Source: a virus
DNA length: 44,240 nucleotides
IMG/VR virus record: IMGVR_UViG_3300044560_000016
Reading direction: 5' to 3' (one strand)
The position numbers and the translations under genes were made by a program. Of the stretch, positions 9,684-44,240 are shown one piece after another. The notes beneath the pieces were generated by a model. That model saw nothing but the letters and a program-made list of their open reading frames with translations, did not search any database and had not been told where the DNA came from. Every line of letters starts with the position of its first letter. The stretch's first letter is position 1.

Positions 9684-10823
9684 ATGGCATCTATTAAGAA
9701 ACGTGGTAAGACCTGGTATGTTAGATTTTCTAAGAGAGTTCAAGAATGGGACCCTGAAACCCAATCTATGAAATCAGTCCTAAAACAAAAATCAAAAGGC
9801 GGTTTTAAAACCAAGGCTGAAGCACAACAGTACGGAATTAAAATGGAAGCCGCTTCTATTGATGGTGTAGATGTAGTTAAGAACCCTGTGTTCGCTGACT
9901 ATTTTGAACACTGGTATCTTACTTTTAAATTCCCGATTATCAGAAAATCAACGCAAAAGAGATATATTACTAATCATCATTATCTTGAAAAATATTTTGG
10001 ATCAACAAAAATAAAAGATATTTCAAGAGCTAAATATCAAAGCTTCTTAAATTGGCTTGGTAAAAACCATGCTCCTGCTACAGTTCGTAAAACCAATATT
10101 ATGGTTAAAGCTTGTGCAGGAAATGCAATAGAGGATGGTTTAATCGTTAAGAATTTTACCAATCGCACAACCATCACAGGAAACCAAGACAATGTCAGAG
10201 CCATAGAATACCTTAATGAGGGAGAAATGAATAAGCTGGTACAATTATGCCTAACTGGTTTAACTCCTCGTTATACTAGCAAATATTTAGTTCTAGCAGG
10301 ATTATTTACAGGCGCACGACTTGGAGAACTAACCGCTTTAAAATGGACTGATATTGATTTTAAGAATAAAATTATTGATATTAATAAAACTTGGAATCCT
10401 AATTTAAAAATACTAGGACCAACTAAAACCGAAAGTTCAGTTCGAAAGATTAAAGTTAATTCTTTCTTATTAGATAAATTGAAGCAATTAAAAATTAATA
10501 ATTCTGAATTTGTTTTTGCTATTCCTAGAACTGGACTGCCACCTTCTAGTTCTGCTGTAAATCAATTCTTAAGAAAAGCCATTAAGGAAATTGGGCTTAA
10601 CAAACCTGATTTTCACTTCCATAGTTTAAGGCATACTCACGTTTCATATTTAATTTCTCAAGGAATTGATATAGCTGCTATCAGTAAACGCTTAGGACAT
10701 GCTAATATAGCAATCACTTTATCAATCTATGCTCACTTACTTGATGAATATAAGGATCAACAAGATGCCAAAATTATTAATTCACTCAATCAAGTTTGTG
10801 CAACATTTGTGCAACACGGTTAA
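9684..10823 (+). CDS. int: Tyrosine-recombinase integrase
   Basis: ARLGEL, HSLRHTH and LGHANIAITLSIYAHL catalytic motifs. Confidence 0.95.
   Translation: MASIKKRGKTWYVRFSKRVQEWDPETQSMKSVLKQKSKGGFKTKAEAQQYGIKMEAASIDGVDVVKNPVFADYFEHWYLTFKFPIIRKSTQKRYITNHHYLEKYFGSTKIKDISRAKYQSFLNWLGKNHAPATVRKTNIMVKACAGNAIEDGLIVKNFTNRTTITGNQDNVRAIEYLNEGEMNKLVQLCLTGLTPRYTSKYLVLAGLFTGARLGELTALKWTDIDFKNKIIDINKTWNPNLKILGPTKTESSVRKIKVNSFLLDKLKQLKINNSEFVFAIPRTGLPPSSSAVNQFLRKAIKEIGLNKPDFHFHSLRHTHVSYLISQGIDIAAISKRLGHANIAITLSIYAHLLDEYKDQQDAKIINSLNQVCATFVQHG
10796..10816. repeat. 21-bp direct repeat ttgtgcaacatttgtgcaaca, copy 1 (inside the int 3' end)
   Basis: Identical string at 11011-11031; each copy is an internal tandem of ttgtgcaaca. 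Confidence 0.9.
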
Positions 10824-10959
10824 AATTTCTATGATTTTCTAAAACATAAAATCCTATAATATCAATGTTTTGAGTATTCTGAAACATCGTAAAAGCTTAT
10901 ATTTTAATTCAACCAAGGCTTTAAAGTCTGGTAAAGTTACTCGTGCCTAATAATAAAAA

Positions 10960-10997
10960 ACCTTGATAGATCAATGATCTTTCAAGGTCTTTTTTTA
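10960..10997. terminator. Strong, probably bidirectional intrinsic terminator downstream of int
   Basis: accttga-t-agatc/gatct-t-tcaaggt stem, A-run before and T-run after. Confidence 0.75.
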
Positions 10998-11010
10998 CCT
11001 TAAATTGCTA

Positions 11011-11031
11011 TTGTGCAACATTTGTGCAACA
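11011..11031. repeat. 21-bp direct repeat, copy 2 (attP region)
   Basis: Identical to 10796-10816. Confidence 0.9.
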
Positions 11032-11064
11032 GATTTTTTTATTTTTTTCTTCCTATAATAAAAC

Positions 11065-11112
11065 AAAAAAAGCCACCCTGGGAATAATTTTCCTAGAGTG
11101 GCTTCTTTTTTT
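11065..11112. terminator. Bidirectional intrinsic terminator after the endolysin gene
   Basis: agccac...gtggct stem extended by ctggga/tcctag, flanked by A- and T-runs. Confidence 0.7.
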
Positions 11113-11152
11113 ATAGATTTAGATTTTAGAAAGGTTGATTTTTTCACTTCCT

Positions 11153-12004
11153 TTATTTGATTTTACCTAATAGCTTATTATATTTGTCTCTTGCAACAAT
11201 GTATCCGTAAGAGCCGCCACTTCTTGGTTGTCTTAACCACAAGCGCTTTGGTCCTTGCAATGTTGCATCGAACTTAATTGTATCGCCTTTCTTTAACTTG
11301 GCAAGAGGTTCAGATTCAATGTGTGGGGATTTATGAATTTCTAAAGATTGGCCTAAAGTGAATGTACCATTCTTTTTAACCCATTCAGATTTTTTACGTT
11401 TAGCTGCAGATTGCTTACTTGAACCTTTAGCAAGTTTCTTCCAACCATCTTTTGTAACATTAACCACGCTGCGGTCCATGTCGCCGCCGGTAAACTGCCA
11501 TGCCGTGTAGGTTGGCCATGGGCTTACACTAAAGTTAGCATTTGGAGTTTTCCAACTTGCCCAATTCATAGAAGCGTACCATGCTACCCATAAACCACAA
11601 TCTTTAGCACAATTGGCAACTTGGTTTAGAGCAGATTGCTGAACGTAAATTAATGGCCACACACCGCTAAGGCGGTGGTATTCATCTACGAATTGACGTA
11701 CGTAATTAGAATTGCCCCAGGAACTATTTTGGTATGACTCCCAGTCAACAGCCGGCACAGCTTCACCTATGTAGTTCTTGGTATTTTTATAAAAGTATTG
11801 TGCTTCGGCTTTTGCATTTCCGCCGCCACAGTAGTGGTAAATTCCTAGCAGTTTTCCTTTTTTCTTAGCTGCTTGATAGTCAGTATCACACTTAGGATTT
11901 ACGTACCCTGTTCCTTGTGTGGCTTTAACCATCGTAATATCGGTTCCTGCTTGAGTAGCAAAGTGACGTGGTGAATCAGAATAAACATCAACCATTTTTA
12001 GCAT
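11153..12004 (-). CDS. Endolysin: GH25 muramidase with a C-terminal SH3b-like cell-wall-binding domain
   Basis: DITMVKATQGTGYVNP...GIYHY GH25 pattern; C-terminal FTLGQSLEIHKSP...GDTIKFD SH3-like region. Confidence 0.85.
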   Translation of the reverse strand: MLKMVDVYSDSPRHFATQAGTDITMVKATQGTGYVNPKCDTDYQAAKKKGKLLGIYHYCGGGNAKAEAQYFYKNTKNYIGEAVPAVDWESYQNSSWGNSNYVRQFVDEYHRLSGVWPLIYVQQSALNQVANCAKDCGLWVAWYASMNWASWKTPNANFSVSPWPTYTAWQFTGGDMDRSVVNVTKDGWKKLAKGSSKQSAAKRKKSEWVKKNGTFTLGQSLEIHKSPHIESEPLAKLKKGDTIKFDATLQGPKRLWLRQPRSGGSYGYIVARDKYNKLLGKIK

Positions 12005-12936: not shown

Positions 12937-13108
12937 ATTTCTCACCTGTTGCTTTTTCATAATATTCGGCTGGTAGAGTACCATTAGCAACACGTTCTGC
13001 TAATTCTTCTTTGCTTGTCCAGCCCCATTTGTAGTACTGTACAGCTCTTTCATATACAGGAGTTGGATCGATAGGCTTAAAGCTAAAATTAAAGTTGAAA
13101 TCAAACAT
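12911..13108 (-). CDS. XkdX-family small phage protein
   Basis: 65 aa with YYKWGWTSKEELAERVANGTLPAEYYEKATG, resembling the XkdX family; position after the tail-fibre genes. Confidence 0.6.
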   Translation of the reverse strand: MFDFNFNFSFKPIDPTPVYERAVQYYKWGWTSKEELAERVANGTLPAEYYEKATGEKYEKDEKKV

Positions 13109-13695
13109 TATTTTTCATCCTCCTTAGTGCCTTCTGCATTTGCAGGTGTTTCTTGCTTCTTACCACTTTCAGTATCAGTTTGATCTCCTCTAATACTATT
13201 GATGGCAGCGCCTAATTCCTTGAAGGCTTGACCGAATTGATCACCCATAGCGTTGATTTGTGCAATTAAAGCAGCAGAAGTTTCATTTGATTGATTAATC
13301 GATACTTGAACGGCATTAAGTTGCTTATCCTTAAGTGCATCATTTTTATCCAATTCATCAACTTTTAGATATAACTGGCTAAGCCCTTCTTTGGACTTGT
13401 CATACCATTTGTTGTTAACCCAATCATAGGCAGGCTTAATTAAACCTGGAGTTGGATCTGTTGGTGGATATGGGTAAATGCCTACTTTATCTTTTTCAAC
13501 TGGTTCACGCTTGCAATCTACCTCATCATCACTGCGATATGCATAAACATAATTACTAAGTAAATCCTTAATAATTTCAGCTTCAGAAGGCTTTAAACGC
13601 AATTCAATATCTTCTGTTTCAGTTGTTTCTTCACTTGCAGCTTCAACGGCTTCGAGTGTTTTCGCCTTTACATCTGCATTAGTTTCTTTAACCAT
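13108..13695 (-). CDS. Hypothetical protein (XkdW-position, coiled coil)
   Basis: ATG at 13695 after GGAGAAAAGAGGA; follows the RT gene. Confidence 0.5.
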   Translation of the reverse strand: MVKETNADVKAKTLEAVEAASEETTETEDIELRLKPSEAEIIKDLLSNYVYAYRSDDEVDCKREPVEKDKVGIYPYPPTDPTPGLIKPAYDWVNNKWYDKSKEGLSQLYLKVDELDKNDALKDKQLNAVQVSINQSNETSAALIAQINAMGDQFGQAFKELGAAINSIRGDQTDTESGKKQETPANAEGTKEDEK

Positions 13696-13730
13696 GTTTT
13701 TCCTCTTTTCTCCAAACAAAAAACAGAGCA

Positions 13731-14873
13731 CTAAGAGTGTTCTGCAAATAATTCATTATATAAAGCTCTCATATTGTTTTTAGTTCGATAAGATAGCAAC
13801 TTTTCATAGCTGCCATACCAGGATTTAAATGATGCTTTAGCATCCTCTAAACTCATTCTGCCATCATCAACCAGCCCTCGATATTTCTTCAGCTTCCTTC
13901 TCTCACGAGTCACAGCTTGAGGATTTATCCGCTTAACTAAGTGACCAGTGGAAGTCAATTTATATCTCAGCTTTAAGTAGGTAAACGGCTGATTAAGTTT
14001 CATAATCCTGGTTTTCTTTTCGTTAATAAAAATTCCAAGTTTATTAGCAATTTTGGTTATCTCATTAAGCATTTCATGTAGAAAGTTTTTATCATTACTA
14101 ATAATGTAAGAATCATCCATATATCTGCCATAAAACCGAATCGATCTTATTATTTTGCAATAGTTATCGATTTCGGTAGGAAAGAATATGCTGCAGATTT
14201 GAGATACTTGATCACCAATCGCCAATGATTTTTCCATAAACTTTTCGCCAGTAAGATATTTAGGATTTAATTTAGATTGTTTATCTCCATCAAACTTCAT
14301 ATCTAGGCATTTAGAGTAAAGTTCATCATTTAAATAGGACACATCAATTTTAAAATTCTCTAGTACTTTATCAAATAACCATAAAATTTCTTCATCCTTT
14401 ATATATTTCTTAATCTTATCTCTAAGCTTTTGATGCTGAATATTATCGTAATACTTAGAGAAATCAATTAAAAGAATATATCCTTCATTGCCATGTTTTC
14501 GATAAAATTCATGCAAATGCTGTTCAAATCTTCTTCTAGTAAAAGAAATACCCTTTCCAGGTAGTGATGCACCATTATCATGAATCAGGTATTGCCTCAA
14601 CGTTGGTGTTAAGCATTCATCGCATAGGCTTCTTCTTACAACTCGATCAGAAAATGGATTGCTACGGATATTTCGCTGCTTTCCTCTTTCATTAACTATG
14701 AAACTAGAGCCTTTTCTAGCGTAATAGGTGTGGCTCTCAAGCTCGTTACTAGTTGCTACTAGCTTAGCCAGATAATCCATTTCGTACATTTGAACCTGCG
14801 GCTTCCATGAGCTGCCTCTCTTACTTTCCAAATAAGCTCTATATAATTTGTTTAAATCACTAATATTTTTCAT
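13731..14873 (-). CDS. DGR-type reverse transcriptase
   Basis: FSDRVVRRSL, LLIDFSKYYDNI, the DGR-diagnostic IGDQVSQ, and the YMDD catalytic box; no maturase or endonuclease domains. Confidence 0.9.
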   Translation of the reverse strand: MKNISDLNKLYRAYLESKRGSSWKPQVQMYEMDYLAKLVATSNELESHTYYARKGSSFIVNERGKQRNIRSNPFSDRVVRRSLCDECLTPTLRQYLIHDNGASLPGKGISFTRRRFEQHLHEFYRKHGNEGYILLIDFSKYYDNIQHQKLRDKIKKYIKDEEILWLFDKVLENFKIDVSYLNDELYSKCLDMKFDGDKQSKLNPKYLTGEKFMEKSLAIGDQVSQICSIFFPTEIDNYCKIIRSIRFYGRYMDDSYIISNDKNFLHEMLNEITKIANKLGIFINEKKTRIMKLNQPFTYLKLRYKLTSTGHLVKRINPQAVTRERRKLKKYRGLVDDGRMSLEDAKASFKSWYGSYEKLLSYRTKNNMRALYNELFAEHS

Positions 14874-15021
14874 ACTAACTAAAAATCAGGTGGCTAATAG
14901 TGATAACAATCGTAACTGATCACGTCCACCATCACTTTTACTACCTTTCTGATAGAAGGACAGTTTCTCCTTCTTCTTCATCGTTTTTCTGATATTAATC
15001 ATTTATTTTGGTGAAGGGAAT
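14874..15021 (-). ncRNA. DGR spacer (Sp-like) RNA segment between TR and RT
   Basis: 148 nt non-coding; hairpins gaagga-N7-tccttc (14955-14973) and nested gtgg/ccac plus gtgat/atcac stems. Confidence 0.5.
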
Positions 15022-15109
15022 CCCGAACGCCATTCCAGGTATTGGATGCGCCATTCCAGTTATCATCGCCATTGTTGCTCGCATTCGCAAACTCAGCCGA
15101 AGAATGGAT
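15022..15109 (-). repeat. DGR template repeat (TR)
   Basis: 88-bp match to 15685-15772 with 9 mismatches, all at TR coding-strand adenines; starts 9 nt after the avd stop. Confidence 0.9.
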
Positions 15110-15118
15110 TAACAGAAA

Positions 15119-15556
15119 CTACCCTATTTTCTTCTTTAATCTAATATCTGACTTTCGCCACGATTTGATCAAATGAATTTCTTTTTCAATTAGTTCAATG
15201 GATGTTCTATATTTATTCAGATTCAAGCCCGTTATAACGTCTACTATCGATTGCAATTCTTGCTTCAAAACAATGCAATTTGCTATTGCTTTGTCTTGAT
15301 AGAGCCTTCTTTGGTCGTACTCTAACACAGTGGTTACGTACATTGCATTAGCTCTATGAATATCTCCCACAATATCACCACACAGATTTATAATTCTTTC
15401 AAACTTTAAATCTAAGAATTGAGCTTCACCTAAATCTGCAATTCTGGTAATTCCAAAATCTAGCATCAGGTGCTTAACTAGCTCTTTTTGAATAATTTGC
15501 ATATTGTGAAAAACTTCGAATCGTGATTTCTTTCTCTTTCCTTTTGGAACTGACAT
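15119..15556 (-). CDS. avd: Accessory variability determinant (Avd)-position protein
   Basis: 145-aa helical protein with a basic N-terminus (KGKRKKSR) located exactly between VR and TR. The assignment is positional; no motif was recognised by eye. Confidence 0.6.
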   Translation of the reverse strand: MSVPKGKRKKSRFEVFHNMQIIQKELVKHLMLDFGITRIADLGEAQFLDLKFERIINLCGDIVGDIHRANAMYVTTVLEYDQRRLYQDKAIANCIVLKQELQSIVDVITGLNLNKYRTSIELIEKEIHLIKSWRKSDIRLKKKIG

Positions 15557-15626
15557 AAATATAAAACCTTTCTACATTAATTCTTAAGGTGGATGAATTT
15601 TATAATACATTGGAGGCACACTTTCT

Positions 15627-15665
15627 ATCGGCTTGCACCCCTAAAGGGGATGCGGATCAGCCGAT
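15627..15665 (-). promoter_or_regulatory. Two-tier hairpin immediately 3' of the VR and stop codon (DGR homing hairpin/cruciform candidate; may also terminate)
   Basis: atcggct/agccgat outer stem, gcacccc/gggg(a)tgc inner stem, 4-nt loop. Confidence 0.6.
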
Positions 15666-16528
15666 TAGCCGATCAAGAAGAAAGCCCGAACGCCAAACCA
15701 GGTATTGGATGCGCCATCCCAGGTATCATCGCCATAGGAGCTCGCATACGCAAACCCAGCCGAAGAATGGATATCTCTAAGCCAGATAGTACCACGATTG
15801 AAATTACGTTCTGTATCATTCATTCTCATAATAGGCAATTGACTATTATCATCACCAACGTTGCACCATGCGTTGTTCTTGTTGTTACCGTTTAGAGTAG
15901 TACCATAGATCATTACTTCTGTAGGAATCATAACCTTCATATCGCGCCATTCACCTTGGTCAGGTGCACCGGAATCATCAACATGAGTAGATACAATGCC
16001 TCTCCATTGCATTAAATGAGAACCAAAATCGCTCTCTAATTTTTGCTGAATTTGAGGCAAATAAATCTTATAAAGTTTAGTATTAGCAAAGCCTCCTTCG
16101 GTGGTGTCGGTGTCATTCATGTAATGAGTGTCCTTACCATTGGGGGCTAAAGTTTGAGTAGGTGTTTTAGACCAATCTTGAGGCATAAGAACTAGATGAT
16201 TACCTAAAGAAATGTTGTCTCCGTGGCCTTTCTTATAGTTGATACCGGCAATGACATAATTAGATCCATTAATGCTGAAGTAATCACCGATAAACATATC
16301 CTTAAAGCTACCATTTTGGATATTTGCGATATGGGTAGCCGTCAAATTACCTAAATTTTGTCCTCTAAAGATGCTGTTATGAGTTGCAGCACCGTCAGGG
16401 ATTAATGAGTAATACAAATCTCTTAATCTTGTTTTGGTTTCACCATTTCCGGTAAAAGTTAAAGCAAAATTTTCATTAGTATCTGGTTTCCAATTTTCAC
16501 TTAAGTCTTGGATTCTTGTAGCTGCCAT
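15665..16528 (-). CDS. DGR target protein: putative distal tail-fibre / receptor-binding protein with a C-terminal variable region (C-type-lectin-like fold inferred)
   Basis: 287-aa ORF directly after the tail-fibre gene; VR at the extreme C-terminus ending in the WFGVRAF motif. Confidence 0.8.
   Translation of the reverse strand: MAATRIQDLSENWKPDTNENFALTFTGNGETKTRLRDLYYSLIPDGAATHNSIFRGQNLGNLTATHIANIQNGSFKDMFIGDYFSINGSNYVIAGINYKKGHGDNISLGNHLVLMPQDWSKTPTQTLAPNGKDTHYMNDTDTTEGGFANTKLYKIYLPQIQQKLESDFGSHLMQWRGIVSTHVDDSGAPDQGEWRDMKVMIPTEVMIYGTTLNGNNKNNAWCNVGDDNSQLPIMRMNDTERNFNRGTIWLRDIHSSAGFAYASSYGDDTWDGASNTWFGVRAFFLIG
15685..15772 (-). repeat. DGR variable repeat (VR) at the C-terminus of the target gene
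   Basis: Encodes IHSSAGFAYASSYGDDTWDGASNTWFGVR, ending 6 codons before the stop. Confidence 0.9.
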
Positions 16529-16549
16529 AATTTAAACTCCTTTTTTGTT

Positions 16550-17740
16550 TTATTTAATTTTTGCTTCTAAAGCTGTCAATCTGCTATTTAAAGATTGAAT
16601 GCTGTTCTTTAAATCTCTAATAGTAGGATTATTCTCAATAGTTGATTGAGTTAAGCCGAGTCTGGATGCCAATTGTCTAATAGCTTGCTCAAACACATCA
16701 GATAAAATCCTAATGGTATCTCCAACCTTTTTAGCATCTGCAGCTTGATTAGATTTATTAAGTTCATTATCAATAAGCACATATTGAGCGTTTGCAATTA
16801 ATTCTCTACCATCATGAATGACTAAAGCATTACCATCATGTGCAACTAAATTAATAGATCTTCTATTAGCAATAATGCCGTTTTCTAATCTAGCTGTTTC
16901 TTCTCTAGCAGTAGCAATATTGTTCTGATTAGTATCAATGCGCTTATTTGAATTTGTGATCCTATCAGCATTAGATTTAGCTAAATTATTAACGTTTCTA
17001 ACAGTAGCCTTAGTTTCAAATGTTTCTCTTAAATTGCGTTCAATGCCATGAATCTCATTTTCAATAGCTTTAAGATTATCTCCCACAACTTTAGCTGGAG
17101 CAGCCTTAGTGCTACTAGTAAGAAAATGATCATATTCAACAATAGGCTTGTTAGCGAATAATTGCTTATTATCATGTGTTACAAGCTGATTACCATCAGC
17201 ATCTTTAAGAGCTACAGTGATATAGCCGTTGCTTAAAGCATTAATGATTTCATCAATATCATGTTCATGTTCTCTGCGCGATTCTAGCCCATCGGGATTG
17301 ATGTTAATCGTTACATGATCAGTATCACCAACCTGAACATAAACCATGATTCTAAATTCAAAACTAGGATCACTTAAAGTCAATCTTTCAGGCTCTTCAG
17401 CCAAAGAAAAAGCGATAGGATAACTTGCATTAATACCATCTTGTCGCCCTTCAATTTGAATACTTTGTAAATCGATATCTCTAGTTAATCCAGTACTTTC
17501 TTGAGTAAAAGACAATTCAATTCCTAGAATTCCTTGATCTGCTAATGATTTATCATCTTTAGCAAAAATAGGGATATGACCAATTGGATTAACGATTGAT
17601 CCTTGATTCATTACATCATTTTCATTAGTTTTGCTTTCACTATAAGAAGCAGATGTAATTTCAAAGGTTCTTCCTCGTACTACTCCTTGAATAATTTGTA
17701 ATCCTTTGGGTAGTAACTTTGTTCTACTGTATTTACTCAT
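16550..17740 (-). CDS. Tail fibre protein with an internal duplication and a C-terminal coiled coil
   Basis: 396 aa; repeated ...DGNxLVxHDxxxLxAN...AAxAKxVGD... segments; follows the baseplate genes. Confidence 0.6.
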   Translation of the reverse strand: MSKYSRTKLLPKGLQIIQGVVRGRTFEITSASYSESKTNENDVMNQGSIVNPIGHIPIFAKDDKSLADQGILGIELSFTQESTGLTRDIDLQSIQIEGRQDGINASYPIAFSLAEEPERLTLSDPSFEFRIMVYVQVGDTDHVTININPDGLESRREHEHDIDEIINALSNGYITVALKDADGNQLVTHDNKQLFANKPIVEYDHFLTSSTKAAPAKVVGDNLKAIENEIHGIERNLRETFETKATVRNVNNLAKSNADRITNSNKRIDTNQNNIATAREETARLENGIIANRRSINLVAHDGNALVIHDGRELIANAQYVLIDNELNKSNQAADAKKVGDTIRILSDVFEQAIRQLASRLGLTQSTIENNPTIRDLKNSIQSLNSRLTALEAKIK

Positions 17741-18411
17741 AAATTCCTCCTTTCTGCTTCAATCGTTTGAACAGTTCTTCCAGTAACCGGTGTAGCAACA
17801 TAAGCGGACGGTTCAATATTTGTCTTACCCCAAATACCACACTGATATAATCGCTTGACAATTGTTGAATCATCTAGCCATTCTGCTTTAGCTACAGTTT
17901 GAGCAACCACGGTACAAGCAGACCCAATGTAAGCGTGAGCTGCTTCAGTTTTAGCCCACAAACGGTAGGTATAGCCCATGTTTGCCGGTAACCATGTATT
18001 TAATTCAAAAATTACCAGTTTTTGTTGTGATTTAGTTAACTCACCAGTCCAAGAAACAACATTCAATACACGCCGTGAATAATCAACACTAACTTCAGCC
18101 GGAATTTTCAAAGATTCAAAAATTTGTTTTAACCGTCTAATGGTAAGTGGTTGTGGTGTCAATGTTCTAGTAAGAACTCTTTGCCTTCTTAGCTCTAAGC
18201 TATCCCCATGTTCAGGCACGATACCGTATTGATCCTCAAATACTAAGATGCCTTTTTCATCAGCTTTAGAAACAAACTGATTAAATAAAGTTCGATTGAG
18301 ATCATCATCAAATTTACTCAATCCTTTGCCTTGAGCTTTTAGCAACTCCTCCATTTCATACACGCCGTTATAGTAATCAGGCATGTAATTGAGAAGTTCA
18401 TCGGTTTTCAT
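17737..18411 (-). CDS. XkdU / P2 gpI-like baseplate-tail protein (DUF2313-like)
   Basis: N-terminal LLNYMPDYYNGVYEMEELLKAQG pattern; position after baseplate J. Confidence 0.55.
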   Translation of the reverse strand: MKTDELLNYMPDYYNGVYEMEELLKAQGKGLSKFDDDLNRTLFNQFVSKADEKGILVFEDQYGIVPEHGDSLELRRQRVLTRTLTPQPLTIRRLKQIFESLKIPAEVSVDYSRRVLNVVSWTGELTKSQQKLVIFELNTWLPANMGYTYRLWAKTEAAHAYIGSACTVVAQTVAKAEWLDDSTIVKRLYQCGIWGKTNIEPSAYVATPVTGRTVQTIEAERRNL

Positions 18412-21365: not shown

Positions 21366-22063
21366 GATCTTTTTACCTCACTCATTTTTACCCAGCCACG
21401 AGCTTTCCCGTTAATTCCCACACAAACCGGATATTTGCGACCAGGAATAATGTATAAAACTTCGCGTTTAGCATTCTTTTCATACATTCCTGTCCCTCTA
21501 CCATAACTATCAGCATGTAAACGGCCATTTACAGATACAGTTGAACCAACACTAATTTTTCCAGCCGGATTAGATCGTTTCTTGCCTTTCTTAGATCTGC
21601 CACGTTTTTTAGGATTCTTCTTTTTCTCATAACTAAATTTACGATATTGTTTTAATTCTAAAGTGTAGGCATATTCATCAGCCCAGCCATTCTCTAAACC
21701 ATATTCAAAACTAGCAATAGTCATTAGCATTGAAATATCAGTCTTAGTGACTACGAATCTAACCTTATGATTCTTACTTTGAATCTTCTTGATTTTCTTA
21801 ACGTAAGTTGCTTGCTTGTGTGGCGTTTTAGTCGCAACATAGCGAGCGCCTACAGTTGGAAAAACGGAATTAATTGATACACCTACTAGCTTTAATTTAC
21901 CAGGGATATTTACTTCACCCAAATTAACAACGGTTTCAGAATGATCATCTGTTTCATACTTGAGTTTTACATCACTAGGATTAACTGGTATTTGTAAATT
22001 TTCTCCAGTTGTTTGATCTTTGATATAAAATTCCATGCCACTTCTATCAGGCATAATCATCAC
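21362..22063 (-). CDS. XkdP-position tail protein with a C-terminal SH3-like domain
   Basis: 233 aa; lysine-rich linker then GSTVSVNGRLHADSYG...GWVKMSEVK. Confidence 0.45.
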   Translation of the reverse strand: MMIMPDRSGMEFYIKDQTTGENLQIPVNPSDVKLKYETDDHSETVVNLGEVNIPGKLKLVGVSINSVFPTVGARYVATKTPHKQATYVKKIKKIQSKNHKVRFVVTKTDISMLMTIASFEYGLENGWADEYAYTLELKQYRKFSYEKKKNPKKRGRSKKGKKRSNPAGKISVGSTVSVNGRLHADSYGRGTGMYEKNAKREVLYIIPGRKYPVCVGINGKARGWVKMSEVKRS

Positions 22064-22066
22064 TTC

Positions 22067-25000
22067 CTAACTTAATGATTTATCAGCTTGTTCCATAATT
22101 TTTTCTTCAAGCTTATCAAGTAATGCATCAGCATCTTCTTCAGGATTACCAGAACTGTTAATAGTGATAGCACCAGATTGAATAGTTACAGATTGATTAT
22201 TATTAGTGTTAGCAGTAGAAGAGTTTGAAGATAAAACTGAAGCAGGTGTAATAGCATTTGATCCTGTTCCTAAATTGGATCCATCAATACTTTTTTCATT
22301 GAAGTTCTGATTACCAGTGATTGAACTTAAAATACCAACATTAGCCGTTTTTCCATTTAAGCCAGTGATTGCACTGACAAGGTCATAAATACTATCCTTA
22401 GCTCTATTAAAGCCATCAGCTAATAAATCTCCTGTATTAAATTGATCCATTTCAGGAGCACCAATAACTGGATGCATTCCACTAGCGGCATCAACTACAC
22501 CTTGTGCCATATTAGCAGAAGCATCAGCTGCGGCACCGGCATCTTTGTTAAGACCAATAATTAAACCTTGATCAACCCATCTACCATATTGCCTAAACAA
22601 TCTTGATGGTGAACCAATATGAAGCAAGCCTTTAGCGGCACTTACTACACTACTTGCAACTTTACTTACAGCACTAACAGCGGCACCAATCATTGAGGTA
22701 ATACCGTTAATCAAACCTTGGATTAAGTCACGACCTACACCAACTAAGGCACCAGCAAAACCTCTAGCAGCACTAACAGCGGCTTGAATACCGCTTGAAA
22801 CTGCAGATACAACTCTACTCATTGCACTGGTAATAGCAGACACCATCATAGAGCCAGCCATAATGAACATTGAGACCATAGTCATTACAGCGGTACCAAC
22901 TGCTACAATTGCGGCTGCTGTCATCATTGCTGCAGCAGCTACAGCGGCTAATCCTGCTGCTAACATCATAGAAGCAGAAGCTAACAGCATTAAACCAACT
23001 GCGGCTACCATTGCCATTGGCCCAACTAAAATTAATGCCATTGATAACATGAGCATTCCAACTGCGGCAATCATTGCCATAGGTGCAATCATTACCATGG
23101 CTACTGCAAGCAGCATCATACCTACTGCGGCAATTAATGTCATAGGTGCAATCATCACCATAGCCACAGCCATTATCATTAGACCTGCTCCAGCTACTAA
23201 AGACATTGCCGCAATTAAAGTTAAGGCAACGCCAAATAGTAATGCACCTACAGCGGCTATCATCAATCCTGCAGCTAAAACAATTAAGCCAGCACCTAAT
23301 ACAACTACACCTACTGCGGCAACTAAGGCACCAACACCGAACACTGCAATTGCTCCAGCTAAAGCAAGTAATCCAACAGCGGCACTAAGACCATATTGAG
23401 AAATAATTGGCAACTGAGTTGCTAACATTGTAATTCCAGCAGATGCCACAAAAATAGCAGCACCAATAATTAAAAGTGCTGCGGCAAACATCAAGAATCC
23501 TGCTGAAGCCCCTATCATTGCAGGGCCTAATAATCTAACTACAACAGCTAATGCAGCAATAGCGGCTACCATTCCAAAGAAAGTAGCAATTGTAGCACCG
23601 CCACCACTAGCTAATTGTGTTGCAGCATCTGCTAAGAGCTTAAATCCAGCGGCAGCTAATACAACAGCACCACCAACCATTAGTAAAGCGGCACCTAATT
23701 TAAGATAGGCACCAGCGCTTTGAGCAATGCCACCAGCTTGAGGAACTTCAGGAGTAGCCATCTTTGGTGCTCTTATACCTTTGATACTACTGAAAGCATC
23801 GTGGATTCCTTTTAGCATTTGAAATCCTTTGCGTGCCGCTTTCAAAATTACAAAAGCATAGGCCATTTTAGTTAATGCACTAGCAATTCCTTCAATAGTT
23901 CCAGGACTTAAGTTATTGAGCTGTTGTAATCCTTTAACGATGGCCATTATTGCAATTCCTTTAAGTCCACCTTTTAGAACAATGAATGCTCTAGCAAGTG
24001 ACATCAAAGAATTTGGATCAATTTGTCCTATGGCTTGTGCTATACCGGAAATAGCTTTAGCTACACTGCTAAGAGCTCCACCAGTTAAACTTCCTAGTTG
24101 TTTAAAAAAGCTTCCACCACCATTACCTTCATTAAGAGTATTAGTTACATCCAGAACTGCATCAGCAATATCTTTAAGCATATTTATTAAAGAATCTCCA
24201 ACGCCGGAACTTGAAAGACCTTCAAAGAAATCTGATAAACCTAACTGTAATCGTTCAAATATAGGTTGAATATAATTAATAGCATTAACTAAGCCATCAC
24301 CCATTGCATCCCAATTAAAATTAGATATTTTATCAGTTAATCCAGAAACAACATTAATTCCGATTTTACTCAGTTTTTGATATTGATCTATTACTCCATT
24401 GGCTAATGTTTCTTTCAAGCCATCCATGGCTTGCCCAACAGTTTTGTACTGAGTAGCCATTTTAGAGAAGTTAGCATTGGTACCAGTTTTAGCAACAGCG
24501 TTTAAGAAATCCTGAGTTTTAACCTTACCGTCCTGAATATCTTTAATCAGTCCTGTTAAGTTAGTATGCATGGTTTTAGCAACAGCAGACATTCCGGCCG
24601 GTGTTTGTTCTAGCATTAGTTTAAAATCTTGCCATTGAACTTTAGGCTTAGCTGCCATTTGTGTGGCTTGTTCACTTAAAGTTTTCATGGCTTGTTGAGG
24701 ATCATTAGCTGCAGAAGCTAATCCACCAAAACCTTTAACCAATTGAGCAGTATTCTTAGTGCCAACTGCGGCTAATTGAGCATAGGTACTAGACATATCA
24801 GAAGCACTGTAAATTGTTTGTTGTGCAAACTTCTGCATATCTGATTTAGCTCTAGCAATTTGAGTATTAGATGCACCAATTTGACGCATATTTCCTTCAA
24901 ATGTTTGCCATGAAGTTGATGCTTCATTAAGTTCACCTAGCATTGAACTAATACCAGATCTGGCTAAGTCCATGCCTTTACTAATTAAGTTACCAACTAC

Positions 25001-25186
25001 AACACCACCAGTCATAGATTTGAACATACTATTAGATGATTTGCTTGCACCTTGAAATGCATCACCACTTAAAGCACTTTTTAATTTACTAAAACCACTC
25101 TGCCCTTTTGAAAGCCCTGCGGCTAACTTGCTTAATGGAGCACTAAAGGCATCATTAATCTTAATTGTTGCGCTTATTTCAGCCAT
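22067..25186 (-). CDS. Tail tape measure protein with a long hydrophobic periodic core
   Basis: 1039 aa, directly after the frameshifted chaperone pair; Ala/Met/Leu/Gly-rich central region. Confidence 0.85.
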   Translation of the reverse strand: MAEISATIKINDAFSAPLSKLAAGLSKGQSGFSKLKSALSGDAFQGASKSSNSMFKSMTGGVVVGNLISKGMDLARSGISSMLGELNEASTSWQTFEGNMRQIGASNTQIARAKSDMQKFAQQTIYSASDMSSTYAQLAAVGTKNTAQLVKGFGGLASAANDPQQAMKTLSEQATQMAAKPKVQWQDFKLMLEQTPAGMSAVAKTMHTNLTGLIKDIQDGKVKTQDFLNAVAKTGTNANFSKMATQYKTVGQAMDGLKETLANGVIDQYQKLSKIGINVVSGLTDKISNFNWDAMGDGLVNAINYIQPIFERLQLGLSDFFEGLSSSGVGDSLINMLKDIADAVLDVTNTLNEGNGGGSFFKQLGSLTGGALSSVAKAISGIAQAIGQIDPNSLMSLARAFIVLKGGLKGIAIMAIVKGLQQLNNLSPGTIEGIASALTKMAYAFVILKAARKGFQMLKGIHDAFSSIKGIRAPKMATPEVPQAGGIAQSAGAYLKLGAALLMVGGAVVLAAAGFKLLADAATQLASGGGATIATFFGMVAAIAALAVVVRLLGPAMIGASAGFLMFAAALLIIGAAIFVASAGITMLATQLPIISQYGLSAAVGLLALAGAIAVFGVGALVAAVGVVVLGAGLIVLAAGLMIAAVGALLFGVALTLIAAMSLVAGAGLMIMAVAMVMIAPMTLIAAVGMMLLAVAMVMIAPMAMIAAVGMLMLSMALILVGPMAMVAAVGLMLLASASMMLAAGLAAVAAAAMMTAAAIVAVGTAVMTMVSMFIMAGSMMVSAITSAMSRVVSAVSSGIQAAVSAARGFAGALVGVGRDLIQGLINGITSMIGAAVSAVSKVASSVVSAAKGLLHIGSPSRLFRQYGRWVDQGLIIGLNKDAGAAADASANMAQGVVDAASGMHPVIGAPEMDQFNTGDLLADGFNRAKDSIYDLVSAITGLNGKTANVGILSSITGNQNFNEKSIDGSNLGTGSNAITPASVLSSNSSTANTNNNQSVTIQSGAITINSSGNPEEDADALLDKLEEKIMEQADKSLS
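22935..23400. repeat. Degenerate 63-bp (21-codon) periodicity inside the tape measure gene
   Basis: The actgcggc/acagcggc motif recurs at 22998, 23061, 23124, 23250 and 23376 (multiples of 63). Protein units include AVAMVMIAPMTLIAAVGMMLL and AVAMVMIAPMAMIAAVGMLML. Confidence 0.75.
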
Positions 25187-36551: not shown

Positions 36552-36563
36552 TAAAAATATTAA

Positions 36564-36635
36564 AACCTAGGATGGACTTGCACCATCATTGCTGACTTTC
36601 GTAAGTCATGTTTTTTCTAATTAAACTACTAGGCC
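36564..36635 (-). ncRNA. tRNA-shaped element with an aberrant anticodon loop (6 or 8 nt) and a non-canonical T-loop
   Basis: 72 nt: acceptor ggcctag/ctaggtt (two G-U pairs), D stem gttt/aaac, stem tgact/agtca with loop tacgaa, T arm gatgg-tgcaagt-ccatc. Confidence 0.4.
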
Positions 36636-36658
36636 CTTAATTCCGTATTAAGAATTAA

Positions 36659-36729
36659 CAGACTCACCAGGAATCGAACCCAGATAGCTTGATTTGGAGT
36701 CAAGCCGTTTGCCATTAACATATGAGTCT
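36659..36729 (-). tRNA. trnW: tRNA-Trp (anticodon CCA)
   Basis: Hand-folded cloverleaf: 7-bp acceptor agactca/tgagtct, D loop AATGGCA, anticodon stem cttga/tcaag with loop CTCCAAA, T arm ctggg-TTCGATT-cctgg, discriminator G, A1-U72; CCA not encoded. Confidence 0.85.
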
Positions 36730-37060
36730 GGAATGGTGTGCCATAAGCACACCGACAACGTTTACGCTCTGCTCGCTCGCCTCAGTACCGTTAAAAACGG
36801 GAGGGTCTTCGCAAGCTATGCACAAGGCTGGACTTTCACCAGCACCACCGCAACTGCAATAGTCGGACGTGTCATTTTACCGTTTAGGTTTTCATGTGCG
36901 CCACTGAATATTTAAAACGAAGGTGCAATTTATTTAACGACGCTTGCTAACGTCACTGCGGCTGATGCGGGACTTCAACCCGCCTGCGTGTACTGCAGAT
37001 CAAATGTCAATTAACAAGAACGGTAACCACACGAGATCAGCCTGTTGTTTTGTCTTAAGA
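36730..37060 (-). ncRNA. Hairpin-dense, G+C-enriched non-coding segment of unknown RNA class
   Basis: Hairpins at 36735-36753 (7 bp), 36788-36800 and 36827-36843 (5 bp, 7-nt loop), plus the tRNA-like module at 36959-37042; no ORF with a ribosome-binding site. Confidence 0.5.
36959..37042 (-). ncRNA. tRNA-like element with a long variable arm and an atypical T-loop
   Basis: Perfect 7-bp acceptor ggctgat/atcagcc, T arm gcggg-TTGAAGT-cccgc, extra arm ctgc-agtacac-gcag, candidate anticodon arm gttaa-TTGACAT-ttgat (two G-U pairs), poor D arm. Confidence 0.4.
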
Positions 37061-44035: not shown

Positions 44036-44240
44036 TTATTCTCCTTCATACCAACCTTCAGCATTTAAATGAGCTGCTTTTTTAGGACTTAATCTTTTTA
44101 GAAAACCTCTTACCTGGTTTTTTCTTATATGCCATTCAACATAAGTAATTTCCTGATTACAATTTGGTGTCCATCTAAAATCTTGATTAACACGTAGCAT
44201 TGCAACATTGAAAGTTAAGAAATCTAATTGATTTGAACTT
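44036..44240 (-). CDS. C-terminal part of the junction-spanning 103-aa hypothetical protein
   Basis: Same frame as 1..234 once the overlap is collapsed; TAA stop at 44036-44038. Confidence 0.5.
   Translation of the reverse strand, partial: SSNQLDFLTFNVAMLRVNQDFRWTPNCNQEITYVEWHIRKNQVRGFLKRLSPKKAAHLNAEGWYEGE
44114..44240. repeat. Terminal direct repeat, right copy (identical to 1-127)
   Basis: Same 127-nt string as 1-127. Confidence 0.95.

Follow-up and report, generated by a model that had tools for sequence, protein, structure and literature searches.

Diversity-generating retroelements (DGRs) are well known as a kind of element, and the DGR of Bordetella phage BPP-1, their prototype, with the order mtd-avd-TR-brt (TR, template repeat), offers the closest architectural counterpart of the locus considered here. 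The RNA of BPP-1 has been described as containing a stem-loop that binds Avd, a stem that binds bRT, the Thumb Ring, and the cPRT Stop duplex, which is accompanied by a stem-loop and adenosines; BPP-1-like RNA elements have been predicted in 207 of 278 DGRs (bioRxiv 10.1101/2023.10.23.563531). DGR targets of gut phages (e.g., phages nd4 and nd12, with DUF6273 as the only domain) are small single-domain proteins of 234-294 amino acids (aa), carry the variable repeat (VR) at their C-terminus, and lie beside tail genes, and DUF6273-type targets have been modelled as C-type-lectin-like (PMC10743442). In Lactobacillus phages DGRs appear to be undescribed: a literature search found no paper on one, its coverage being incomplete and the element being possibly listed in large DGR surveys. 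The virus record IMGVR_UViG_3300044560_000016 of IMG/VR (44,240 nucleotides, nt; this whole stretch is called the window below) very probably contains an intact, single-target DGR of the BPP-1 architectural type, carried by a temperate contractile-tail phage of Lactobacillus crispatus. On the minus strand, its parts follow one another in the order target, VR, hairpin, avd, TR, spacer, and reverse transcriptase (RT):

17740..16550, minus strand: upstream tail-fibre open reading frame (ORF), 396 aa (ORF list)
16528..15665, minus strand: gene of the target (variable protein), 287 aa, closing the baseplate/tail-fibre module (ORF list)
15772..15682, minus strand: VR, 91 nt, encoding residues 253-282 of the target (repeat finder; mutable sites 15756..15696)
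15694..15675, minus strand: 3' homology boundary of VR, resembling an initiation of mutagenic homing (IMH) site, with GC-rich GGCGTTCGGG common to TR and VR
15673..15627, minus strand: two-tier hairpin starting from the target stop codon (DNA fold, z = -2.6)
15556..15119, minus strand: avd-like gene, 145 aa, four predicted helices, isoelectric point (pI) 9.6 (PHROG, AlphaFold2, Foldseek)
15125..15111, minus strand: 5' strand of the predicted TR-bracketing RNA duplex, AGGGTAGTTTCTGTT, overlapping the avd stop codon (covariation)
15109..15019, minus strand: TR, 91 nt, non-coding, starting 9 nt after the avd stop codon (repeat finder)
15018..14874, minus strand: predicted structured spacer between TR and RT, 145 nt (RNAalifold, covariance model R1)
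14873..13731, minus strand: DGR reverse transcriptase, 380 aa (Pfam, PHROG, hhalign)

Most of this layout had been proposed in an earlier reading of the bare letters (the sequence-only reading). Its mtd-avd-TR-brt-like order holds, the ORF list agrees that the 287-aa ORF directly follows the 396-aa tail-fibre gene, and folding recovers the two-tier hairpin at the target stop codon. Both repeats are where they had been placed, i.e., VR at the C-terminus of the target (residues 253-282 of 287) and TR 9 nt behind the stop codon of the 145-aa ORF, while their length is 91 nt instead of 88 bp. The proposed spacer of 148 nt is correct for the shorter TR and amounts to 145 nt from the end of the 91-nt TR to the ATG of the RT gene. 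A degenerate TR/VR pattern has exactly two matches in the window (zero expected), namely TR and one VR, and the element therefore has a single target; a second target or VR in the window is ruled out on the same ground.

Two properties required of a DGR are observed directly: the adenine pattern of the TR/VR differences and the location of VR inside the coding 3' end of a target gene. The repeats are 89% identical, and all 10 mismatches in 91 nt fall at TR adenines (coding strand), of which there are 23 (hypergeometric P = 1.8e-7 for 10 out of 10). According to the sequence-only reading, mismatches at non-adenine positions in an automated alignment would have sunk the DGR call; the automated repeat alignment contains none. 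As many as 22 of the 23 TR adenines occupy codon position 1 or 2 of the VR frame, which is rich in AAY codons (IHSSAEFANASNNGDDNWNGASNTWNGVR).

Related cassettes extend this pattern beyond the window. Six further cassettes from other samples, with RTs 97-100% identical to the window RT, share the whole 91-nt TR with 100% identity, and a VR of its own is present in five of them (those of L029 and L031 differ at one position). The share of mismatches at TR adenines in the six is 16/16, 15/16, 11/11, 14/15, 11/11, and 13/13. In the eight VR sequences that share the window-type TR, A-to-N changes add up to 103, the new base being G in 45, C in 37, and T in 21; the other changes are two T-to-G substitutions, which two related VRs have at one site adjoining a mutated A. 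Of 22 TR adenines, 19 vary among the eight VRs (position 15684 counted apart), and the sites that differ from TR in at least one of the eight comprise 20 TR adenines and one adjacent T. Position 15684, which is C in all VRs and A in all TRs, is best read as the end of the copied segment and not as a mutable site. As different VRs accompany identical TRs, the element must have been active after these lineages split.

The variation is also confined to VR. When the window is compared with L033, 10 of the 91 VR positions differ, but only 3 and 4 positions in the 300 nt on either side, i.e., the difference in VR is about 10-fold above that in the flanks. Across five aligned cassettes TR has no variable column, whereas the avd and target genes vary by several percent. 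Tips of phage tail fibres are commonly mosaic and under diversifying selection, and the likeness of TR and VR might in principle stem from ordinary recombination or gene conversion, with selection generating the variation and no reverse transcription involved. This is extremely improbable, since it leaves unexplained why 103 of 105 differences sit on template adenines, why the non-adenine positions of VR are more conserved than the rest of the gene, and why the non-coding TR is invariant.

The adenine pattern is likewise reflected in proteins and in other lineages. Because target homologs were found by protein search, no selection on nucleotide or adenine pattern was involved; nevertheless, among the ten nearest homologs, all 29 VR residues can be reached from TR by A-to-N changes in six, and three more have one unreachable residue (18.5 unreachable residues are expected after column shuffling). 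In clusters of proteins at 90% identity (from L. crispatus, L. amylovorus, and L. gallinarum), the only columns to show 6-9 different residues are those of VR. In a sister lineage, whose RT is 75% identical to that of the window, the RT protein and TR are identical across several samples that present two different adenine-only VRs. The degenerate VR/TR pattern, which matches 21 of the loci compared, gave no match in IMG/VR and none in the contigs of JGI metagenomes. The size of target clusters was set aside as a sign of hypervariation, RT clusters being equally large. Taken together, the comparisons provide strong indirect evidence for recent mutagenic retrohoming in the lineage of the window.

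The RT matches its initial description: FSDRVVRRSL is located at residue 74, IGDQVSQ at residue 219, and YMDD at residue 251, and Pfam detects RVT_1 only (1.3e-15), with no maturase or endonuclease domain. In PHROG the protein belongs to phrog_1423 'reverse transcriptase' (2.6e-66), and its best sequence match in PDB is the 328-aa RT of 8ub7 (entries 8ub7-8ube), in which IGSLTSQ is aligned to IGDQVSQ. A profile comparison, suggested earlier as a means of telling DGR RTs from others, aligns the family (37 homologs) with BPP-1 Brt at full length (hhalign probability 99.3%, E = 3.9e-20, 296 columns). The GxxxSQ motif before YxDD and the homology to Brt thus assign the RT, as far as sequence can tell, to the DGR clade. 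A scan of IMG/VR with the RT profile yields at least 589 related stretches, only one contig reaching 76% identity. When 83 loci with RTs 42-76% identical to the window RT were compared with themselves (a repeat 120-190 nt upstream of RT, its partner 650-1350 nt further), 63 displayed the target-avd-TR-RT layout with adenine-biased repeats, the bias meaning that adenines of the copy nearer to RT account for at least 80% (mostly 100%) of the mismatched positions; in several of the 20 failing loci the RT lies close to the upstream contig end. This recurrence indicates that the RT clade, a large one from phages of Firmicutes, is a DGR clade with one conserved architecture.

Membership of the RT in some other class (retron, group II intron, or Abi/DRT defence), combined with an unrelated 91-nt duplication, would fit the NCBIfam scan, in which group II, Drt, and retron models come on top, all far below their cut-offs, and no DGR-specific model is returned. 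Such a coincidence has next to no probability in view of the adenine-only repeat pattern that recurs in 63 of 83 loci of the clade, the full-length alignment to Brt without a maturase or endonuclease domain, the absence of a group II or retron RNA from the Rfam matches at the locus, and the adjoining Avd-type gene; retron, group II, and Abi identities were rejected on the repeat pattern, the Brt homology, and the Avd neighbour. An insertion of about 40 aa (VSYLNDELYSKCLDMKFDGDKQSKLNPKYLTGEKFMEKS; residues ~178-216, window 14226-14342) is found between conserved blocks upstream of IGDQVSQ in the RT.

The 145-aa protein, described earlier only as a helical ORF with a basic N-terminus in the Avd position, matches phrog_3206 'Avd protein of DGR' (E = 3.9e-8). 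It is basic (pI 9.6), and its AlphaFold2 model (28 homologs, mean predicted local distance difference test score, pLDDT, of 82) consists of four long helices. In a Foldseek search with this model, BPP-1 Avd (4dwl_E) gives the best TM-score (0.80, root-mean-square deviation 3.0), and two small four-helix proteins, 2gsc_B and 2rld_A, also have high match probabilities; both presumably belong, like Avd, to the '23S rRNA intervening sequence / S23' family. According to the model, the protein is probably an Avd-type accessory protein with a basic four-helix bundle. A distant Avd homolog, P0314 (215 aa), has an N/G-rich C-terminal tail (NVNGNGNSNANNASNVNGVRPDF), which looks like a translated TR; it appears that the avd ORF runs into the template repeat in that case.

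A tail role of the target is supported by its gene position and by ORF23 of Lactobacillus phage JCL1032, which is 36% identical to it and annotated as a structural/tail fibre protein; a role in receptor binding may be proposed by analogy. Residues ~40-287 form a module that 2380 representative proteins (260-1048 aa) have as their C-terminal part (HMMER), i.e., a large target-domain family without Pfam coverage or known fold. In 339 target homologs the variation is concentrated at the C-terminal SSAxFAxAxxxGDxxWxGASxxWxGVR. The Pfam family DUF6273 is touched by 10 of 45 distant relatives, while the window target itself has no match to it; one located match in the relatives is sub-threshold and covers the C-terminal ~60 residues, which form the VR-bearing end. 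This weak similarity is the sole link between the target and the C-type-lectin fold of Mtd/TvpA-type variable proteins (Pfam FGE-sulfatase, DUF1566, DUF6273), a fold that may at most be conjectured for it. The adenine-only VR at residues 253-282 and the differing VRs on identical TRs bear out the suggestion that the C-terminal tip of a tail-module protein is hypermutated.

Downstream of VR, the DNA displays candidate target-site signals. After GGCGTTCGGG, VR has CTTTCTTC where TR has ATTCCCTTC, and this GATT (TR)/GCTT (VR) difference ends the TR/VR homology across distant clade members, too. The 3' boundary of VR might therefore act like the IMH/IMH* pair of BPP-1. The outer stem of the hairpin behind it (ATCGGCT/AGCCGAT) is formed by 15673-15667 and 15633-15627, and the inner stem (GCATCCC/GGGGTGC, with the loop CTTTA) by 15653-15647 and 15641-15635. 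A GC-rich hairpin is located 25-35 nt 3' of VR in 29 of 29 related loci, the stem sequences being different but covarying. By analogy, the IMH-type boundary and the downstream hairpin may serve together as target-site signals.

The RNA around TR is organized in a similarly conserved manner. Positions 15125..15111 are predicted to pair with a conserved core at 14971..14957, so that a duplex brackets TR, with its 5' strand 2-11 nt upstream of the repeat. The two strands covary in 23 loci, and the mean length of the cognate helix is 11.5 bp against 7.5 bp for non-cognate combinations. In the RNA of the window, the 5' strand of the duplex and TR are followed by a stem-loop, the 3' strand of the duplex, a small hairpin with adenosines, a single strand, and a UACG-capped stem:

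15016-14976, minus strand: predicted P1 stem-loop (spacer alignment and RNAalifold)
14971-14957, minus strand: predicted 3' strand of the duplex (covariation with 15125..15111)
~14959-14931, minus strand: predicted small hairpin and A-rich stretch (spacer alignment)
14930-14889, minus strand: predicted long P4 stem, capped by the UACG tetraloop 14914-14911

RNAalifold on 31 spacers yields one stem in which 9 pairs covary. Twelve spacers of distant DGRs (RT ~47% identical to the window RT) went into covariance model R1, which matches 14883-15030 on the minus strand of the window along its whole length (43.6 bits, E = 2e-6). The model has matches in 82 of 95 sources, always on the RT strand and between TR and the RT start wherever coordinates could be compared, and gave no match in BPP-1 or in the four cassette-less loci searched (L004, L007, L114, and L115). 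In the alignment fitted to R1 (A8), 95.8% of cells are paired, compared with 61.6% after shuffling and 30-47% with partners slid, and 22 of 23 pairs show compensatory changes, although these counts lean to the model structure, to which the alignment had been fitted. An Rfam scan of 13500-16800 returned nothing at E <= 1, and the fold of TR and spacer as a single sequence is not significant (z = -0.84), the structure emerging from comparison only. The duplex and the spacer thus represent a well-supported, covarying candidate scaffold that is common to at least 80 related phage DGRs and new to Rfam, and features of the BPP-1-type RNA scaffold are, on this comparative basis, probably present in the window. 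In the subgroup used for model building, the 3' strand of the outer P4 stem overlaps the apparent GTG start codon of RT, a hint that translation of RT could also be restrained by the RNA fold.

By analogy with BPP-1, a transcript comprising the 3' end of avd, TR, and the spacer would fold into a scaffold that binds the RT-Avd complex. Its parts would be the TR-bracketing duplex, the stem-loop after TR, the A-rich single strand, and the long UACG-capped stem. The RT would copy TR into cDNA and misincorporate opposite template adenines, and the cDNA would replace VR at the 3' end of the 287-aa gene, a step probably guided by the homology boundary and the downstream hairpin. About 20 adenines at codon positions 1 and 2 could in this way randomise ~14 residues of the C-terminal tip, while scaffold residues and TR would remain unchanged. 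The synthesis of cDNA, retrohoming, and activity of the copy in the window are thus proposed on the model of BPP-1.

Relatives of the phage shed light on the history of the cassette. Six of seven lineages sampled through the target gene are devoid of avd-TR-RT (loci L004-L016, L117-L118, and L121-L122). L004-type loci match the window up to 15474, a point 83 nt inside avd, and again from 13910, where 180 nt are left to the RT stop codon; in L007-type loci the match ends at 15585 and begins again at 13766, with a 28-nt internal piece of avd (15326-15299) kept. Phage T280 (L114, OQ627808; 4501-5600) retains the first ~76 nt of avd, and phage CR28 (L115, OQ627802; 1424-2700) retains ~220 nt of the RT 3' end. 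Many truncated fragments are also found among Avd homologs. The differing remnants correspond to at least four deletions, which indicates that the cassette is ancestral and was lost repeatedly; the word 'inserted' in the sequence-only reading has to be dropped accordingly, since relatives without the cassette keep fragments of avd and/or of the 3' end of the RT gene. In the database records of T280 and CR28, the target homolog is called hypothetical and the remnants are not marked as DGR relics.

Most relatives without the cassette still have the target gene together with the homology boundary and hairpin. Intact cassettes have 0-1 non-adenine mismatches to their own TR. The orphan VR of the L007 type (L007-L016), with boundary and hairpin kept, has 13 of 13 mismatches at adenines relative to the window-type TR, and other orphan VRs have from 4 to 23 or more non-adenine mismatches to the best TR at hand; these counts cannot give an age, because the TRs that belonged to the orphan VRs are lost. 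One conceivable but rather doubtful scenario is that avd-TR-RT behaves as a dispensable, repeatedly lost 'diversifier', with orphan VRs being rewritten in trans by an intact cassette of a co-resident or superinfecting phage. If it were true, the receptor-binding tips in a larger population of phages would owe their diversity to a small number that carry the cassette.

A number of results weigh against the view of the locus as a functional DGR of the BPP-1 type. The target has no sequence match in Pfam, NCBIfam, or PDB (family profile against PDB, E = 10), hhalign finds no similarity between it and Mtd (probability 0.2%), and its AlphaFold2 model has a mean pLDDT of 42 (alignment of 119 sequences that are only 71-94% identical). 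The 145-aa protein is also without a match in Pfam, NCBIfam, or PDB (PDB profile to E = 10), hhalign of its profile against bAvd gives no signal, and the Foldseek E-values of its model are weak, as is usual for helical bundles. The phmmer score of the RT against bRT is only slightly above those of group II intron RTs. No convincing promoter was found in a scan that gave fewer consensus sites than shuffled sequences and is uninformative. Finally, five contigs with an identical RT protein (L017-L021) all carry the VR of the window, and the VR variation observed is variation between assemblies.

Some of these points fit a cassette that looks intact but is inactive now, so that VR would be a record of past diversification and the receptor-binding tip would be fixed. 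Besides the VR shared by the five contigs and the promoter scan, the frequent loss of the cassette (six of the seven lineages sampled via the target) is in keeping with this possibility. It appears unlikely on the whole, since the ORFs of avd and RT are full length, YMDD and all conserved motifs are kept, and no damage is seen in TR, in the spacer helices, at the homology boundary, or in the hairpin. Furthermore, VR has zero non-adenine differences from TR, whereas neighbouring genes vary by several percent among aligned cassettes, and the different VRs on the same TR place activity after the split of lineages. The five identical contigs may also represent one strain, four of them coming from neighbouring run accessions. 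An intact DGR, probably active in the recent past of the lineage, is the preferred reading.

The genome around the cassette is that of a temperate phage with a contractile tail. The presence of a tail sheath gene and an integrase in the window confirms the earlier assignment to temperate, contractile-tail phages, and the phage is classed by these genes as myovirus-type. The terminal 127 nt are duplicated (1-127 is identical to 44114-44240), and the window is accordingly a circular assembly of 44,113 bp; replication genes sit at both ends of its linear representation. The integrase gene (9684-10823, plus strand) abuts the lysin gene (11153-12004, minus strand), with the gap region 10823-11153 between them. 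L017 is an integrated copy, identical to the window down to 10908 and continuing into host rpmB, asp23, fakA, and recG, which locates the attachment core near 10908-10923. Metagenome contig L020 runs across the circular junction, and hence both integrated and excised forms are present in public data. Public runs with the element are SRR16484645, SRR16484646, SRR16484650, and SRR16379998, to which the reads behind JGI 3300051652 are to be added. The host is Lactobacillus crispatus, judging from the source name that NCBI gives to an identical RT fragment and from the flanking genes. Fifteen contigs, including one of 2.31 Mb, encode the RT protein without any change; a GTDB genome scan with the RT returned only relatives of 42-48% identity, and megablast of 13000-18000 against GenBank phages gave no match.

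The tail module is ordered as baseplate J, gp48-like protein, the 396-aa gene, and the target, followed beyond the cassette by XkdX, holin, and lysin. A 207-aa ORF (13108-13731, minus strand) begins at the RT stop codon; it has 195 aa in most relatives and 207 aa in L031, and its sole match is phrog_16648 (PHROG, unknown function). As this ORF is kept beside the target in all cassette-less relatives, it should belong to the tail/lysis module and not to the DGR. Three phage tRNA genes are clustered at 36562-37042 (minus strand), i.e., Trp-CCA, Val-GAC, and a third that ARAGORN reads with a four-base anticodon, 'acga'. Within the 1039-aa tape-measure ORF (22067-25186), the GC content rises at 22001-24000 (0.41 versus ~0.35) and the AT skew is reversed; the opposite strand of this region contains two ORFs of more than 115 aa.

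L. crispatus is a keystone species in the microbiota of the vagina and the poultry gut. Its relatives L. helveticus and L. delbrueckii serve as dairy starters, where the host range of phages is commercially relevant. An intact DGR acting on a tail-tip protein would enable these temperate phages to change their receptor specificity quickly. The series of intact and deleted cassettes, including those of the cultured dairy phages T280 and CR28, offers matched 'diversifying' and 'frozen' phages for assessing the role of the element in host range. The covariance model of the spacer could help in annotating this large DGR clade and serve to extend the structural model of BPP-1 to phages of Gram-positive hosts.

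Among described phages, T280 and CR28 (L. helveticus) and JCL1032 (L. delbrueckii) resemble the window phage in the tail module and in the target homolog, which is 68%, 65%, and 36% identical, respectively. They differ by having no functional cassette, and in the region corresponding to VR they depart from every TR compared at many non-adenine positions. Phages of gut Firmicutes (Acutalibacter phage Fontainebleau, Roseburia phage Shimadzu, and Faecalibacterium phages) encode RTs 28-42% identical to that of the window, and phage Fontainebleau also has a relative of the target (29% identical). The IMG/VR loci sampled from this group share the spacer RNA model, whereas the nearest of the RTs are no more than 50% identical, and the target of the window, in contrast to the gut DUF6273 targets, has no DUF6273 match.

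Several features set the element apart from that of BPP-1. The target has 287 aa versus 381 aa in Mtd, with no detectable sequence similarity, and the repeats are 91 nt long in the window versus 134 nt in BPP-1. The RT clade of the window has the ~40-aa insertion (residues ~178-216) that is absent from Brt, and the Avd of the window has no sequence-level match to bAvd. R1 misses BPP-1, and the UNCG-capped stem predicted at the 3' end of the spacer in the window is located right after TR in BPP-1. The phage itself is of the myovirus type, and its host is Gram-positive. On the other hand, the gene order and strand are equal to mtd-avd-TR-brt, VR occupies the extreme 3' end of a tail-module gene, and the TR/VR differences are adenine-only. 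The RT is homologous to Brt over its full length, and the predicted fold of the 145-aa protein is the four-helix fold of Avd. A GC-rich homology boundary is followed by a hairpin in both cases, and in both a long-range duplex appears to bracket TR, with structured RNA behind it, in a position that matches the 'cPRT Stop duplex' of BPP-1.

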